From the NCBI RefSeq assembly GCF_057098645.1, contig NZ_CM169472.1: a DNA stretch of 64,000 nt. One strand, 5' to 3'. Both the position numbers and the translations under genes were made by a program. This document shows, piece after piece, positions 10,892-49,898 of this stretch; within the stretch, counting starts at the first letter, position 1; every line of letters starts with the position of its first letter. The notes beneath the pieces are model-generated. The model made no database searches, was not told the origin of the DNA, and worked only from the letters and a program-made list of their open reading frames with translations.

Positions 10892-11257
10892 TCACAGTCC
10901 GATGATATCGTCTGCCCTGCCATGACCTCCGGACACCTCCGGCAGCGTCGGGTCCGGCATACCACTCGCCGTTTCACTGACTGACTTCTGGCGATGGCAT
11001 TCGGTACAGAGCGTCCAGAGATTCGTCTCCTCATTACCACCACCGAACTGAAGTGCAATGCGGTGATCGAGTTCACTGTCACAAAGGTCAACCACACGCC
11101 CACAGAGACAGCACTGTCCGGCATCCCTCAGCCAGATACGACGCTTGAGGGAAACCCGGGCACTGCCACTGACCCGACGCTGTTCACCCTTCAGGACATT
11201 CACCCGCCGGGTATTCAGAGTTTTGATTCTGCTCTGGAGTGTACGAAGCTCAGCCAT
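10892..11257 (-). CDS. HNH endonuclease (terminase-associated)
   Basis: Motifs CCLCGRVVDLCDSELDHRIALQFGGGNEETNLWTLCTECHRQK; sits immediately upstream of terS as in HK97-type cos phages. Confidence 0.8.
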   Translation of the reverse strand: MAELRTLQSRIKTLNTRRVNVLKGEQRRVSGSARVSLKRRIWLRDAGQCCLCGRVVDLCDSELDHRIALQFGGGNEETNLWTLCTECHRQKSVSETASGMPDPTLPEVSGGHGRADDIIGL

Positions 11258-11298: not shown

Positions 11299-11499
11299 AT
11301 GTCATCGAAAAACCGGACCCGCAGAACCACAACCCGCAATATCCGTTTCCCCAATCACATAATTGAACAGATCAACATCGCCCTTGAGCATAAAGGGTCC
11401 GGTAACTTTTCAGCGTGGGTTATTGAAGCCTGCAGGAGAAGGCTGGCAACAGATGCAACGCATCTGCGCCCGGCCAGCATGACAAATAACGAGAAATGA
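11299..11499 (+). CDS. YlcI/YnfO-family small protein
   Basis: 66 aa, MSSKNRTRRTTTRNIRFPNHIIEQINIALEHKGSGNFSAWVIEACRRRL; recalled as a prophage small-protein family. Confidence 0.5.
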   Translation: MSSKNRTRRTTTRNIRFPNHIIEQINIALEHKGSGNFSAWVIEACRRRLATDATHLRPASMTNNEK

Positions 11500-11791
11500 A
11501 CGTTCGGTTTCTTCCACCATCGCACCGGACAGGCGACTATGAGGGGACAACGCCGCGCTCCGTTAACGCGGTAAACCCCGGTGTGTATCGTTTTTGATTA
11601 TCCCCGCACACTCGCGCAGAAGGAATTCCCCGTCGGGCTACGGTCATGGTTAATGCGGAAATACAGCGACGATACAGCGCATGATGTGTCAGGCTTGAAT
11701 ACCTTTATCCGTTAAAAGGGATATCAGTTAAGTTATCCCGTGTAGGGTATAAGCCATTATCAAGCCCACCAGTAGATGGGCTTTGTAATGG

Positions 11792-12049
11792 CTACTTCGC
11801 TTTTGCTTCCGCTCGCTTACGCCGGCGCTCTTCTTTCCTCTCGGCTTTTGCCATGTCCATGAATGCCTGCATGATCGAGTTCCGCATCATGTAGCTAACA
11901 AAGTGATGATTGACACAGCCGTTGAGGCGCAGCTGCTCGCCAAACTCATCCACCGAGGCCAATGCTTCCATCATACCCTTCTCGCCTTTCATGAACTCTG
12001 AGAAGTCGCGCCCCGCTCTGGAGGCGCATTCAATGACACGATCACTCAT
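11792..12049 (-). CDS. Hypothetical protein coupled to the KilA-N gene
   Basis: 85-aa ORF, 4-nt overlap with upstream KilA-N gene; basic C-terminal tail. Confidence 0.4.
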   Translation of the reverse strand: MSDRVIECASRAGRDFSEFMKGEKGMMEALASVDEFGEQLRLNGCVNHHFVSYMMRNSIMQAFMDMAKAERKEERRRKRAEAKAK

Positions 12050-12543
12050 CCCGGAAGTCCGGGGATCGAAATCTGCAACTGGTTAGCCAGGGAGTTAATT
12101 TCAGCGATCAAACCAGGTTTCGTGTAGCGCCATGCCGCGAGGCCTTGTCCACAGAAGCTCGCCATGTCTTTTTTCTGATCAAACTCATGACATTTCATGT
12201 TGAGCTGCGCACTTAAGCTGTTCCGATGATGAAGCTCTCCGGTGAAGTAATCATCGAGGACTTTATAGGCTGCATATTTAAATCCGGGGTTTAGCCATGC
12301 TGCGTAATCATAAGCAACGAACTTTCCGCCATAAGTTCCACCGTGCGCACCGCGTTCCGTAAAAACCACAGATTCGTGGTTTTTCTCCAGCTCAGCCAAG
12401 AACTCTTTGGTCTGCTTGTTTCGCAGGTAGTGGTACGGAGATTCAGATTCACTTTTACCACTGGCTTTCCACATATCAGTGAGGCAGATCATGCCATCTT
12501 CACCGATACGGATTGGTTGATTGAAGAGGGTTAATGATTTCAT
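12046..12543 (-). CDS. KilA-N domain protein (antirepressor-like)
   Basis: 165 aa, N-terminus MKSLTLFNQPIRIGEDGMICLTDMWKASGK typical of KilA-N. Confidence 0.6.
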   Translation of the reverse strand: MKSLTLFNQPIRIGEDGMICLTDMWKASGKSESESPYHYLRNKQTKEFLAELEKNHESVVFTERGAHGGTYGGKFVAYDYAAWLNPGFKYAAYKVLDDYFTGELHHRNSLSAQLNMKCHEFDQKKDMASFCGQGLAAWRYTKPGLIAEINSLANQLQISIPGLPG

Positions 12544-12745
12544 AGCGTGTACCTACTCTTTGAAATGAACCTTTGCCGCACAGGAAACCAGCCCACCGAG
12601 GCTCGCCAGCACTAACTGGTATCCTCAAAGGCCCATTCCAAAGGGGCAGGTTCGGTGTAAAAAACATGCGTTGCGGTACGCATTTATTGCAAAAAGCCCC
12701 GCATCGCGAGGCTCATTAAATGGACTTTGTGATTTGCAAAAAAAA

Positions 12746-13183
12746 TTATTTCAGGCATTGCGTCCTGATGTACTCCTGCAGGTAGTTAACCTGCGCGGTT
12801 ATCTTGTCGATTCCACCTCGGAGACGGTAATAATTGAGTTCAGCATCTGCTGTAAGTCCTGGGCTTTCTCCATCGCCCATGCTGCTGGCTCCGGTCGTTG
12901 ACTTTGCACAGGTGGCGGAGACTTGCAGGCGCTTACGCCCAGCAGAAACATCAGCACGGAGACTTTCGATAGTCGCATTAGCATCAGCAAGCTCCTTTGT
13001 GTATCTGGCGTCAAGTTCTGCTACATCACGTTGCCGCTTCTGCATATCAGCGATGATGGATGTGGCTTTATCGCGCTGCTCTTTGTAGGCGATGGCGTTA
13101 TCACGGTAATGATTAACAGCCCATGAAAGGCAGACGATGAGGCAGATGACCAGAACGTAGATAATCGCGGTTACTCTGCTCAT
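12746..13183 (-). CDS. Rz: Rz i-spanin
   Basis: [40 protein letters not shown]...; ATGA overlap with endolysin stop. Confidence 0.8.
12799..12978 (-). CDS. Rz1: Rz1 o-spanin lipoprotein (embedded in Rz, +1 frame)
   Basis: [34 protein letters not shown]: signal sequence, lipobox Cys, proline-rich; start approximate. Confidence 0.65.
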
Positions 13184-14175: not shown

Positions 14176-16026
14176 TTATGCTGCCGGTGCATTTATCTCC
14201 AGCACCAGGCTTTCTATCTCAACGCCATACGCTGCATTTTTTGTAACATCCGTCAGCGTCAGCGCATTCAGCCCCAGTGTCAGACTGTCTTTTATGACCT
14301 GGAATGCCGGGCCAGCCACTCCATTCAGTTTCGGAGTAACCGTGGCACTGCCGGCGGTGAACACCAGCTCCAGCGTCTGCCAGTCGTTACCGTAATCGCC
14401 GAACTCCCCCAGCTTCGTGTTTCCGGCTTTCCTGTGATGCATCAGATTCACTCTGCCGTCAGTGGTCTGAGTAAAGTACGACATCAGGAACGGATTACCG
14501 GTACCCGTCATCGCCACATCATCAGGAACGGGAGCATCCGTATACAGATAAATCCCCAGCCCGAACTGATTGTTGGTCAGTGCGCCTGACAGGCGGAACT
14601 TACAGGTCAGTCTGCCGCCCTGTGTCAGCAGGGTAATTGCGTCATCCACCGGATGCGTCAGGGACCAGGTTTTATTGCTCTGCTTGGTGATCTTAAATAC
14701 ACCACCCGACAACTGAATTCCGCCATCCTTAATGCTCCAGCCCTGCGCAGCAGCCTCTCCGGCTGCCGGCAGCAGGGAGATTGTGCGAACGGACGTATCT
14801 GCAGACGGACCCGATGGCGTGTTGCCGCCGGGCGAGGGTTTGATTTCCGGTGCCTTACCACTGATGAAGGCTGAGGTGCGCCCGGCTGCGTTCAGAATAG
14901 CGGTTGCCAGACGATCCGGAATAATGCTCCTGCGCGCCCATGAACTGAAATGTGTCGGGCGGTTTGATGATACCTGGTTTCCATTCGTTCTCGATGCCGC
15001 ACCGTAATATCCTGATGCCGGAATATCCGGATCTTCTGCCGGCGCGTTAGTGGCGGTATTGACGCCGTTACCGTCTGTCATGAAGGGCACAAAATAAACG
15101 CCCTCACTCTCCCTGTTTTTATACCCGCCGTACACGGTGTCGTACTGGGTAGCGTATGTATTTTTCCAGTAATACGTCGTGTCACCACAAATCCACGGCA
15201 CATCTGCAGCGCTGCCACCATGGCACTGCGCGTTAAACACAGTGAGGTCAGCACGAAACTGCTTCAGCATGGCTGTAAACAGCGCAGGTTGCTGTGCGTG
15301 GGTGGCGGCGCTCATGTCAAACTCTCCCTGCATCCAGCACACCGCCAGCAACACATTTTTCGGGTTCTTCTGTAATGCAGCTTTAGTGCGCGCAATCAGG
15401 TCCTGATATAACGGTTTACCCACACCCCAGCGCGCCGAATCCTGGCTGGCCCCCGCGTCCGCACTGAATGTCCCCTCCGCGCCCTGGGTGAATGCCGAAC
15501 CACCACGACAGCATGGTACCAGCAGGATCCCCGCGTTATTCGGGATATACGGAAGCAGTTTTTTGGCAATATGTAAGCCCTGGCCGACACAGCCGTACTG
15601 CCCTTTGCTCAGGTCTGCCTTCGGATGATTCAGCGTACTCATATCCTGCACATCATGCAGGCAGTGGTCGGCCGGAATAATATCGTTATATCTGCAGGCA
15701 GCCCCGCCCGGCGTCACTGTACTGCGGCGCGCCAGCTGTTTAATGCGCGGATCCGGAGCATCGTATGAATCCGGCAGCGGAAGCCCTTCACCGTAAGCCA
15801 TGGCATTGGACTGCCCGGCCAGTACGATGACGTAGTACCAATCCGGCTCAGTTGCACCACTGACCACCACATCACCTTCTGCTGTAATCGCCTGCATCAG
15901 GGTATAAGGGGTTATGGCCACCGGACTACCAAACGGCTGCCAGCCCTCTTTCAGTTTGTGTGTCAGCTTTTCCGCAAGGTCTGACGGCGACGCCGCCCTG
16001 ACAACATCATAATGTTTAATCGACAT
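14176..16026 (-). CDS. nanS: Prophage 9-O-acetyl-sialic acid esterase (NanS-p-like)
   Basis: 616-aa protein in the conserved position between Q/tRNA and the holin, where Stx-type phages carry nanS-p. Confidence 0.6.
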   Translation of the reverse strand: MSIKHYDVVRAASPSDLAEKLTHKLKEGWQPFGSPVAITPYTLMQAITAEGDVVVSGATEPDWYYVIVLAGQSNAMAYGEGLPLPDSYDAPDPRIKQLARRSTVTPGGAACRYNDIIPADHCLHDVQDMSTLNHPKADLSKGQYGCVGQGLHIAKKLLPYIPNNAGILLVPCCRGGSAFTQGAEGTFSADAGASQDSARWGVGKPLYQDLIARTKAALQKNPKNVLLAVCWMQGEFDMSAATHAQQPALFTAMLKQFRADLTVFNAQCHGGSAADVPWICGDTTYYWKNTYATQYDTVYGGYKNRESEGVYFVPFMTDGNGVNTATNAPAEDPDIPASGYYGAASRTNGNQVSSNRPTHFSSWARRSIIPDRLATAILNAAGRTSAFISGKAPEIKPSPGGNTPSGPSADTSVRTISLLPAAGEAAAQGWSIKDGGIQLSGGVFKITKQSNKTWSLTHPVDDAITLLTQGGRLTCKFRLSGALTNNQFGLGIYLYTDAPVPDDVAMTGTGNPFLMSYFTQTTDGRVNLMHHRKAGNTKLGEFGDYGNDWQTLELVFTAGSATVTPKLNGVAGPAFQVIKDSLTLGLNALTLTDVTKNAAYGVEIESLVLEINAPAA

Positions 16027-16140: not shown

Positions 16141-16340
16141 GAAATAAAGGGATAACGATGATAGTTTGAGAAAAACAGAAATAACACTTTTGTGGCAAAG
16201 CATGGTGCCGGGTGCCTCCCGGTGAATTCAGTACCAGCACCTGAATCCGCGATTATCCCATATACCTACTCGCTGATTGCCCCTCCGCACAGGGGGATTC
16301 ACCATGCAGTAGTATTTTTAATAAACAGTAAACAAAAAAA

Positions 16341-17185: not shown

Positions 17186-17261
17186 TGGTGGCCCTTGCTG
17201 GATTTGAACCAGCGACCTGGCGATTATGAGTCGCTCGCTCTCACCACTGAGCTAAAGGGCC
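17186..17261 (-). tRNA. tRNA-Ile(CAU) / tRNA-Met-type (ileZ-like)
   Basis: GGCCCTTTAGCTCAGTGGTGAGAGCGAGCGACTCATAATCGCCAGGTCGCTGGTTCAAATCCAGCAAGGGCCACCA folds as a cloverleaf, anticodon CAT. Confidence 0.7.
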
Positions 17262-39735: not shown

Positions 39736-39775
39736 AATAAAAACTTGTAAAATCAGTTAGTTTACCCTTAATCCC
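39736..39775. other. Approximate attR junction
   Basis: Lies between the int stop and the point where mlrA coding homology resumes; exact core cannot be set without attL. Confidence 0.4.
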
Positions 39776-40452
39776 TGTCACGTTACGCGCGTGGCAGAGG
39801 CGTTACGGATTGCTGAAACCGCAACGGACAGACGGCGGTCATCGGCTGTTCAACGATGCCGATATTGACCGGATCCGCGAGATCAAACGCTGGATCGACA
39901 ACGGCGTGCAGGTCAGCAAAGTTAAAATGCTGCTCAGTAATGAAAATGTTGATGTGCAGAACGGCTGGCGCGATCAGCAAGAAACATTACTGACTTACCT
40001 GCAAAGCGGCAATCTACATAGCCTGCGAACGTGGATCAAAGAGCGCGGTCAGGATTACCCCGCCCAGACACTCACCACACATCTGTTTATTCCTCTGCGC
40101 CGACGGCTTCAGTGCCAACAACCGACTCTCCAGGCGCTGCTGGCGATCCTCGACGGCGTACTGATCAACTACATCGCCATTTGTCTGGCTTCGGCACGTA
40201 AAAAACAGGGTAAAGATGCGCTGGTGGTTGGCTGGAATATTCAGGATACCACCCGTCTGTGGCTGGAGGGCTGGATTGCCAGTCAACAAGGATGGCGCAT
40301 TGATGTCCTCGCCCACTCGCTCAATCAACTACGCCCTGAACTATTCGAAGGCCGTACATTGCTGGTGCGGTGAAAATCGAACCTCCGCCCAACAGCAGCA
40401 ACTCACCAGTTGGCAAGAACAAGGCCATGATATTTTCCCACTCGGCATTTAA
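39771..40452 (+). pseudogene. mlrA: mlrA (yehV), 5'-truncated by prophage insertion, apparent frame break near 40370
   Basis: Translation IPVTLRAWQRRYGLLKPQRTDGGHRLFNDADIDRIREIKRW... lacks the first ~15 codons; C-terminal CGENRTSAQQQQLTSWQEQGHDIFPLGI is in another frame. Confidence 0.75.
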
Positions 40453-49725: not shown

Positions 49726-49898
49726 GATGAGCATTCAGATAGTGGTTCACGCGCACGGGTTGCGCACCGCCGGAGTAAGGATTTACTGAGGCTAGCGACG
49801 CCATCATAACGAGCAAAAAGTGCGATCGTCAAAGGAGAATCGTGAGGAAATGCTGCATTGCTGACATTTACGCCAGCAATGCAACGTCAAAGAACTTT

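Follow-up and report, generated by a model that had tools for sequence, protein, structure and literature searches.

The DNA analysed here, referred to as the window, is a stretch of 64,000 nucleotides from contig NZ_CM169472.1 of RefSeq assembly GCF_057098645.1. Within a prophage in this window lie two minus-strand open reading frames (ORFs) encoding 165 and 85 amino acids, which an earlier note had described as a KilA-N protein and a coupled, basic-tailed partner, set between Rz and the packaging genes in a position common for antirepressor or moron functions. The ORFs, the Pfam assignment, the overlap of the two genes and the composition of the tail all bore out the first part of this description; so did the neighbouring genes the second, with Rz on one side and genes for an HNH endonuclease and the terminase subunits (terS, terL) on the other. 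The KilA-N gene starts at an AUG at 12541-12543 and ends in an ATGA tetranucleotide (12046-12049) that combines its stop codon with the start codon of the smaller gene, a 4-bp overlap. Upstream of the pair come two terminator-like hairpins and then a leader, about 110 nt long, in which the Shine-Dalgarno (SD) sequence of the KilA-N gene is predicted to be sequestered. The gene pair as such is ordinary, common and widely annotated, and the leader is the interesting part. What is new is the assignment of the small protein to a domain family and the recognition of a widespread, covarying leader outside Rfam, which links the cassette to the rha gene of phage P22; the note had mentioned neither. 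The features are listed in Table 1.

Table 1. Features of the KilA-N cassette, in order of transcription (positions are those of the window).
Feature	Position	Strand	Basis or remarks
Hairpin 1, terminator-like: GAGCCUCGC-GAU-GCGGGGCU, then U5	12691..12714	-	-14.6 kcal/mol; 5' edge of the cassette
Hairpin 2, terminator-like: AUGCGU-ACCGCA-ACGCAU, then GU6	12659..12683	-	Terminator scan
PK5 (CACCGA), 5' strand of the putative alternative helix	12652..12657	-	Adjoins the base of the rod; complementary to PK3
Predicted leader rod: outer anti-SD:SD stem, S1, S2, 6-nt bulge GUGCGG on the 3' side (12576-12581), apical loop	12551..12651	-	
PK3 (UCGGUG), in the apical loop, 2 nt before S2b	12594..12599	-	Complementarity; fold of the nascent prefix
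SD region of the KilA-N gene, AAAGAGUAGGU	12551..12561	-	Base-paired within the predicted rod
KilA-N + ORF11CD3 gene, homologue of HK620 hkbK	12046..12543	-	Pfam, AlphaFold2, dN/dS; RefSeq 'KilA-N domain-containing protein'
Gene for 85-aa three-helix protein, homologue of HK620 hkbL, PHROG 875	11792..12049	-	ATGA overlap, AlphaFold2, hhalign, dN/dS
GC-rich long hairpin, starting within the stop codon of the small gene	11752..11793	.	-27.2 kcal/mol, z -5.65; equalled by 0 of 200 shuffles

The leader is predicted to fold into a rod of about 30 bp, whose outer stem pairs the SD sequence with an upstream anti-SD strand and whose apical loop contains a small hairpin together with the PK3 segment. 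For the window the minimum free energy of the rod is -48.7 kcal/mol (z -3.3). The rod was the minimum-energy or a near-minimum-energy fold in all 10 seed leaders, and the SD region was paired in every one. The 200 bp separating Rz from the KilA-N start are kept in HK620, in a copy located in the tail region of a Klebsiella phage, in Erwinia phage phiEt88 and in Cronobacter and Salmonella; the leader sequence is kept even where the encoded proteins are 50-60% identical and synonymous sites are saturated. Both terminator-like hairpins travel with the cassette into other contexts. The sequence of hairpin 1 is found in every carrier, including the tail-region insertion and P22, and the depositors of the mEp235, epsilon34 and HK106 records annotated a terminator at its position. 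Hairpin 2, weak when taken alone (-6.9 kcal/mol, z -1.0), keeps its stem through a compensatory variant (GCGC/GCGC vs GCGU/ACGC).

A covariance model was built from a hand-made, block-wise alignment with N padding, one row of which is shifted by one column in the PK3 region. It gave a single hit in the window (67.2 bits, E 2e-12) and matches each cassette locus; of 80 IMG/VR loci recovered by a sequence pattern, 79 scored between 34 and 68 bits. Among 80 genome contigs matching the same pattern, eight were hits of the model and 72 were matches in unrelated phyla that do not score. Six of these eight hits come from Enterobacterales (Escherichia, Enterobacter, Pantoea, Pluralibacter and Shimwellia). 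The other two, in metagenome-assembled genomes of a Cellvibrionaceae bacterium (L224) and of Collinsella (L268), have scores like those of E. coli and HK620 (59.5-60.8 bits), and these bins are probably contaminated by enterobacterial phage contigs. A search with the 4227 models of Rfam 15 returned no match at E <= 1 between positions 11000 and 13300 of the window, nor over the leader in six other loci.

Across 61 distinct leader sequences, 93.8% of cells pair as compared with 77.3% in shuffled data, and none of 500 shuffles reached the observed value. Changes on both sides of the helix were seen in 22 of the 25 rod pairs, slid controls being 31-48% paired; for the outer helix, which joins the anti-SD strand to the SD, the count was four pairs out of five. 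Plain MAFFT alignment followed by RNAalifold recovered just the hairpins and the outer helix. These data argue for an SD sequestered in a conserved, covarying structure.

A second pairing was detected between PK5, just upstream of the rod, and PK3, in its apical loop. This pairing covaries in at least 13 sequence variants, among them (PK5/PK3) CACCGA/UCGGUG, CGAGAG/CUCUCG, CCCGAG/CUCGGG, CCAAGAG/CUCUUGG, CCGAAGA/UCUUCGG, UCGAGAG/CUCUCGA, CGUCGA/UCGACG and CACAGAA/UUCUGUG. Both-side changes occurred in six of seven pairs of a manual alignment, which was itself derived from complementarity and is hence biased. An alignment-free test was run with a fixed upstream window, since in some minimum-energy folds PK5 had become part of the rod. 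By this test, 55 of 58 leaders contain a perfect complement of at least 6 bp, and in almost all of them 0-3 nt lie between the end of PK3 and S2b. When leaders were grouped by sequence class, a 6-bp complement was present in 15 of 18 classes vs 14% of cross-class pairings. The case for this putative helix is carried by its constant position and by the number of its variants. When the RNA was folded as a nascent prefix ending at PK3, PK5:PK3 was part of the minimum-energy structure in nine of 10 seeds; in the full RNA, the rod was more stable than the fold forced to contain the PK helix by 11-22 kcal/mol. A tertiary pseudoknot, with PK5:PK3 coexisting with the rod, was also considered and dropped on a geometric, not a computed, argument: PK5 adjoins the rod, some 30 bp long, at its base, and between PK3 and S2b there are just 0-3 nt, a layout that makes an alternative conformer more plausible.

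The leader is found in front of many different genes. In its window type it occurs in 953 of 5426 complete E. coli genomes, before KilA-N or Rha genes and at places where no RNA feature is annotated; a Rha type is present in 146 phage records, 73 of them Stx2a phages. The block also precedes gp73 of HK97. The ORFs that start at the leader AUG most commonly encode Phage_pRha proteins of 172-174 residues, but also Rha-ORF11CD3, KilA-N-ORF11CD3, other KilA-N proteins (173-181 residues), KilA-N-P63C, P22_AR_N-ORF11CD3, an ANT-domain protein, T5orf172 fusions, an HNH_3 protein and a few products of no recognised kind. Several of these belong to the Bro network of shuffled phage regulators listed in PMC10111431. 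A Salmonella Kottbus contig (L012, positions 625-5034) carries three to four Bro-network cassettes within a single late region, every one behind a leader of its own: a KilA-N gene (173 residues) before the holin gene, a P22_AR_N-ORF11CD3 gene, a KilA-N-ORF11CD3 gene with a truncated small gene, and another KilA-N gene. Rfam matches to isrJ and STnc100 lie on this contig immediately upstream of a leader and KilA-N cassette.

In P22 (NC_002371) the leader spans positions 39522-39646 (68.2 bits), directly before rha, and its core is nearly identical to that of the window. The annotated GTG start of rha (orf201, coding sequence 39575-40180), at 39575, falls inside the apical loop of the leader. 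The ATG predicted from the leader, at 39644, is in frame and preceded by GAAGG; it would yield a protein of 178 residues vs the annotated 201, to be compared with the 172-174 residues of Rha elsewhere. The annotated start is therefore probably wrong. Like the gene in the window, rha of P22 and phi80 encodes a Bro-network regulator and is a late-operon gene placed directly behind Rz and ahead of the packaging genes; P22 rha shares the same leader, and relatives of Rha carry the ORF11CD3 domain at their C terminus. P22 rha differs in having an N-terminal Phage_pRha domain in place of KilA-N and in having no coupled small partner. In PMC4936722, Rha of P22 and phi80 is presented as the product of a late-operon gene said to be regulated by integration host factor (IHF), one that blocks or harms lytic growth in hosts lacking IHF (Mozola & Friedman 1985 and Henthorn & Friedman 1995, as cited there). 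The IHF consensus WATCAANNNNTTR does not occur in the leader; its single match in the window lies elsewhere and is expected by chance.

The KilA-N protein matches the KilA-N family over residues 9-101 (PF04383; E 7.4e-16; 58.4 bits vs a curated cutoff of 23.8) and the ORF11CD3 family over residues 109-161 (PF10549; E 2.1e-12; 47.5 bits vs a curated cutoff of 25). ORF11CD3 is a C-terminal module of the Bro network that, in sister cassettes, follows Rha and P22_AR_N. The protein also matches PHROG 129, 'transcriptional regulator'. Its AlphaFold2 model, with a predicted local distance difference test score (pLDDT) of 85.6, has an alpha/beta domain at the N terminus, followed by a long helical hairpin (residues 86-156) that corresponds to ORF11CD3. 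A fold search of the PDB with this model yielded nothing below E 0.06, the best match having E 0.07; weak matches were to DNA-binding proteins, among them the N-terminal domain of Swi6 (E 1.1). Sequence searches of the PDB gave no useful match. The ratio of nonsynonymous to synonymous substitution rates (dN/dS) relative to HK620 was 0.064. For the small gene the ratio ranged from 0.057 to 0.13 in comparisons with mEp235 and the Klebsiella phage, synonymous sites being saturated in more distant comparisons. Both genes are thus real and under purifying selection.

The small protein matches PHROG 875, a group of unknown function, from end to end (E 3e-54), and has no match in Pfam, in NCBIfam or among the defence models of PADLOC. 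Its last 19 residues, AKAERKEERRRKRAEAKAK, include 10 Lys or Arg. In the AlphaFold2 model (pLDDT 93.7), the protein consists of three helices (residues 3-20, 26-42 and 48-84), the long last one bearing the basic tail; a fold search of the PDB with this model returned generic helical bundles alone (best E 1.7). The family is narrow, with 138 clusters at 90% identity and all named sources in the Enterobacterales, and an exhaustive profile search found just 21 representatives among 1.8 billion proteins; there is accordingly no informative distant relative besides one group, the T5orf172 fusions. These are proteins of 161-179 residues whose C-terminal partners match Pfam T5orf172/MUG113 and whose N terminus is homologous to the small protein (hmmsearch of the whole library, E 6e-5 and 9e-4). 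Direct profile comparison with this N-terminal domain, which has no Pfam model (PHROG 4284/875), gave a probability of 98.5% (hhalign; E 3.4e-15, 70 columns). The small protein is thus a stand-alone copy of this domain. Found either fused to T5orf172 or free-standing after a KilA-N or Rha gene, the domain is a previously unrecognised module of the Bro network. In an alignment of the family (A1), C8 and C45 are invariant and H48 and H49 nearly so; by their conservation they could form a metal site. A zinc site made of these four residues was set aside; they are only partly kept in the T5orf172 fusions.

The small gene was never found alone. It always comes directly behind a KilA-N or Rha gene, the two either overlapping by 4 bp or lying 2 nt apart: the offset is -4 behind KilA-N-ORF11CD3, +2 behind KilA-N-P63C, and again -4 where the Rha gene of an Arc/Mnt/P22_AR_N operon comes first. 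It lacks a good SD sequence. In the window (12040-12075, minus strand), a 5-bp GC hairpin, CCCGG-ACUU-CCGGG, ends 1 nt before its AUG and does no better than shuffled sequences (z -0.75). The weak SD and the hairpin are consistent with a dependence on ribosomes arriving from the KilA-N ORF.

The 1-kb region containing the pair is 99.9-100% identical to Shiga toxin (Stx)-converting phages 1717, 2851 and Stx2a_WGPS and to many chromosomes of Shiga toxin-producing E. coli, where the genes are annotated as 'KilA-N domain-containing protein' and 'hypothetical protein'. At least part of it matches 2873 of the 5426 complete E. coli genomes, 378 of which carry 80% or more of the region. Among IMG/VR loci, all 80 that encode an identical small protein have a KilA-N-ORF11CD3 gene directly upstream, nearly always after Rz, and the pair is followed by either an HK97-type module (YlcI, HNH, terS) or a P22/HK620-type module (hkbM, terS). 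The hkbK and hkbL genes of HK620 resemble the window pair in order, overlap and DNA sequence (93% identity). In Klebsiella phage RAH1, the pair (165 and 84 residues, 4-bp overlap) lies between the major tail and tape-measure genes. The occurrence of one and the same pair with an HK97-type terminase, with the P22-type terminase of HK620 and among tail genes argues against a role as a packaging or lysis accessory; a role solely in packaging, which the earlier note had named among the outcomes that would overturn it, does not fit these settings. The slot behind Rz is indeed one where accessory genes replace each other: it is filled by rha in P22, by gp73 in HK97 and by Rha genes in Stx2a phages.

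The two members of the pair also part company. In HK97, HK022 and the mEp phages, the small gene is 95-97% identical to that of the window, and HK97 and mEp235 share the leader as well; the gene before it, however, encodes in HK97-type phages a KilA-N-P63C protein (242-263 residues) whose KilA-N domain is only 24% identical to the window's. The HK97 small gene (HK97p61, after gp73) has lost the basic tail, and shortened partners are found in HK97 and in a Salmonella prophage. KilA-N-ORF11CD3 genes of Erwinia phiEt88 and of Cronobacter prophages have no small partner. A 60%-identical homologue of the small protein, P0178, overlaps the end of a Phage_pRha gene by 4 bp in an operon with the order Arc-like (divergent), Arc, P22_AR_N, Rha, small protein, which is the layout of P22 immI. 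The immI-like operon of this order in Logan contigs (L095-L097) encodes a P22_AR_N protein of 276 residues, Rha of 234 residues and a small-protein homologue with the 4-bp overlap; the covariance model finds no leader match in it, and control would here be exerted by Arc/Mnt-type repressors instead.

In the window, the pair is on the same strand as the genes for holin, lysozyme, Rz, the HNH endonuclease and terminase. In the direction of transcription, the genes for a P21-type holin, a lysozyme and Rz (Pfam E values from 1e-32 to 1e-46) come before it; downstream come a convergent YlcI/DUF3950 gene, then HNH, terS and terL. In the nearly identical prophage of CP027544, Q, three tRNAs, an esterase gene, the lysis genes and the KilA-N pair follow one another on a single strand throughout. 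This gene order, in the window and in CP027544, places the pair inside the late transcription unit, which by its gene content appears to be the Q-antiterminated late operon of a Shiga-toxin-type prophage. The convergent gene (YlcI/YnfO, DUF3950; 66 residues; 11299-11499, plus strand) separates the cassette from the HNH and terminase genes and is found in about one third of cassette-carrying IMG/VR loci. The long hairpin at the end of the small gene is without a clear U-tract; it may be a 3' end, a stabiliser or a two-way terminator shared with this gene. Nested in Rz is an ORF with a lipobox-like LLGVSAC motif (12799-13014, minus strand), the expected Rz1 o-spanin. Farther upstream in the direction of transcription, before a gene for a 616-residue SASA-family esterase (14176-16026) and the lysis genes, Rfam STnc100 matches the late-gene strand (16167-16333, minus strand; 101 bits), probably corresponding to the short RNA that starts at the late promoter and is then terminated. 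Positions 17189-17261 hold a tRNA. Further Rfam matches are an ALIL pseudoknot, which is an IS3-type frameshift element (30626-30742, minus strand), the lambda cIII thermoregulator (33402-33460, plus strand), Peptidase-S11 RNA (49730-49810, minus strand) and naRNA4 (61459-61536, minus strand). These four matches indicate that the window takes in the early region of the prophage and flanking chromosome.

A scan of the minus strand between 11200 and 13300 with a simple consensus found no sigma-70-like promoter, the gap between Rz and the KilA-N gene included. In the A/T-rich block directly 5' of PK5, for which TATCAA, TATTAA or TAACAA is seen among relatives, the last T of a -10 element is missing. 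A moron, in the sense reportedly introduced by Juhala et al. in 2000, has its own promoter and is expressed from the prophage. The suggestion of a moron found no support in this strict sense: two terminator-like hairpins precede the cassette, and the scan detected no promoter on its strand. A moron would also be closed directly by a terminator; at that place the window has the strong hairpin at 11752-11793, which is without a U-tract. Insertion behaviour resembling that of a moron was seen, with the cassette lying between tail genes in RAH1 and after Rz elsewhere.

The reading that we prefer, and to which we would give an even chance of being right, is that the pair is a mobile accessory cassette of the Bro network, housed in a late operon, with its translation gated by the leader. 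In transcription order the cassette comprises the two terminator-like hairpins, the leader, the gene for the KilA-N + ORF11CD3 protein and that for the coupled three-helix protein. The terminators would stop ordinary RNA polymerase, leaving transcription of the genes mostly to the Q-modified enzyme in the lytic cycle. Once the RNA is complete, the rod would pair the SD with the upstream, CCUUU-type anti-SD strand and turn translation off. In the nascent RNA, PK5:PK3 would form first and delay the rod, leaving a short interval for ribosomes to load. A DNA-binding regulator that could do harm, together with its partner, would in this way be produced in small amount and in step with transcription. 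Judging from Rha of P22 and phi80, which shares this slot and this leader, the product probably influences DNA transactions of the phage or the host at a late stage of infection, perhaps as an antirepressor or against competing phages, and would not be a structural or packaging protein.

Leaders that sequester an SD sequence and rely on metastable folding are known from the maturation gene of MS2 and from hok mRNA. The window leader would resemble them in that a stable fold hides the ribosome-binding site while an earlier, alternative helix limits translation to new transcripts, but it has no sequence or family relationship with either and is not known to have an antisense RNA partner. The isrK-orf45-anrP-isrJ locus of Gifsy-1 and STnc100 offer a parallel of another kind, RNA-level control of a prophage gene of the antirepressor type, and STnc100 is also present in the window; the leader, however, matches neither family. 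With immI of P22 (mnt, arc, ant, sar), the cassette shares the character of a tightly gated Bro-network unit inside late or tail genes, RNA-level control being exerted there via sar. The Arc and Mnt repressors of immI, its antisense RNA and its P22_AR domains have no counterpart in the window, where control is predicted to rely on a cis-acting leader instead.

Several points weigh against this reading. The covariation alignments were either fitted to the structure (A7) or hand-built from complementarity (A6), and so lean toward the structure. In single sequences, PK complementarity is only modestly above that of shuffled ones (p 0.003-0.26), and the kinetic window is read off predicted folds. 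A non-canonical or activator-dependent promoter would escape the consensus used in the promoter scan. Most leader-bearing cassettes, like distant KilA-N-ORF11CD3 genes, have no small partner, so that an obligate complex of the two proteins is not called for. We found no functional study in the searchable literature of KilA-N-ORF11CD3 proteins, of the small protein, of the pair or of the leader. Finally, the rod might serve instead as a site for RNase III or for a binding protein.

The rod might be mainly an RNase III processing or mRNA-stability element, comparable to the R1.1-type sites of T7 or the lambda N leader, and not a kinetic gate: a cut at the 3'-side bulge would separate or activate the downstream message and cap the upstream lysis mRNA. 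We consider this the main rival as far as the RNA is concerned, though a rather unlikely one. Its shape fits such an element: the helix is nearly continuous over about 30 bp, its upper stem (about 10 bp) being set off from its lower one (about 18 bp) by a conserved, asymmetric 3'-side bulge of 6-7 nt, and it sits at a boundary between gene modules in a long polycistronic late transcript. Cleavage would leave unexplained the covariation of PK5:PK3 and the pairing of anti-SD with SD in every variant; moreover, after a single cut the S1 duplex of at least 18 bp would still hold the SD.

Somewhat less probable again is a classical antirepressor, the KilA-N protein, with or without its partner, binding and inactivating a CI-type repressor of its own or another prophage. 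The Bro network does include true antirepressors such as P22 Ant; an ANT-domain protein is also found behind the leader, and a homologue of the small protein directly follows P22_AR_N and Rha genes in an Arc/Mnt-controlled operon. Tight gating would suit a product that otherwise induced the prophage, and databases label relatives 'antirepressor'. These labels, however, are similarity annotations rather than tests, and the PHROG 'anti-repressor' matches of the KilA-N protein are weak (E about 1e-3) and lie over common domains. Pfam searches found no ANT/KilAC (PF03374) or P22_AR (PF10547/PF10548) domain, N- or C-terminal, in the protein at E <= 0.01, and no support was found in the literature. 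Furthermore, were transcription to occur only after Q, the antirepressor would be made too late to induce its own prophage. The function that the earlier note had put first is thus left with a family association.

A KilA-N protein expressed in the lysogen might alternatively abort the growth of other phages in the manner of BstA, with the small protein or a DNA element conferring self-immunity. BstA is indeed a prophage-borne defence protein with an N-terminal KilA-N domain (PMC8585504), and a stretch of the KilA-N protein weakly matches the PADLOC candidate system PDC-S22 (E 1e-8). However, this match covers about 30 residues, part of the KilA-N domain, and the pair has no family-level match in PADLOC or NCBIfam, the small protein matching no defence model. 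BstA itself is about twice as long (about 300 residues), has a different C-terminal part, which the 165-residue protein lacks, shows no full-length similarity to it, and is encoded beside the repressor and expressed in lysogens. The window gene lies behind terminators in a late operon, where the promoter scan was negative. We regard this explanation as improbable.

Slightly more doubtful still is a toxin-antidote-like pair, with a KilA-N protein toxic to the host like KilA of P1 and a coupled small protein that neutralises or tunes it. The strict 4-bp overlap, the weak SD of the second gene, its absence as a solitary gene and the heavy gating, suggestive of toxicity, would all be accounted for. 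Such an arrangement is difficult to reconcile with the close KilA-N-ORF11CD3 genes that lack a partner (Erwinia phiEt88, Cronobacter), with the truncated partners in HK97 and a Salmonella prophage, and with a 96%-identical partner following a KilA-N protein that is only 24% identical and has another C-terminal domain. Lastly, the mosaic junctions at the edges of the intergenic block and the very different genes behind it might suggest a mere recombination linker of lambdoid modules, devoid of RNA-level function, but a linker would conserve sequence, whereas what is conserved is pairing, through both-side changes in 22 of 25 pairs and in the PK helix, and with the SD always as the paired partner, making this the least credible of the accounts.

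A broader and more tentative proposal can also be made, one that we hold possible but short of probable: the leader would represent an undescribed class of cis-regulatory RNA in temperate phages of Enterobacterales (Stx-converting phages, P22, HK97, HK620), a portable unit of terminator and kinetic translational lock for interchangeable, potentially harmful Bro-network genes (Rha, KilA-N, Ant-like, T5orf172) in late operons, with PK5:PK3 setting a brief window for translation. This RNA might, in addition, be the regulatory target that has long been missing from accounts of the Rha/IHF phenotype in P22 and phi80. A single covarying leader is common to more than 12 regulator architectures in Stx phages, P22, HK97, HK620 and phages of Klebsiella, Pantoea and Erwinia. 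It would provide a concrete, mutable handle on how phages silence genes of the Bro family until late lytic growth, and it offers a testable explanation for the old observations on Rha and IHF.

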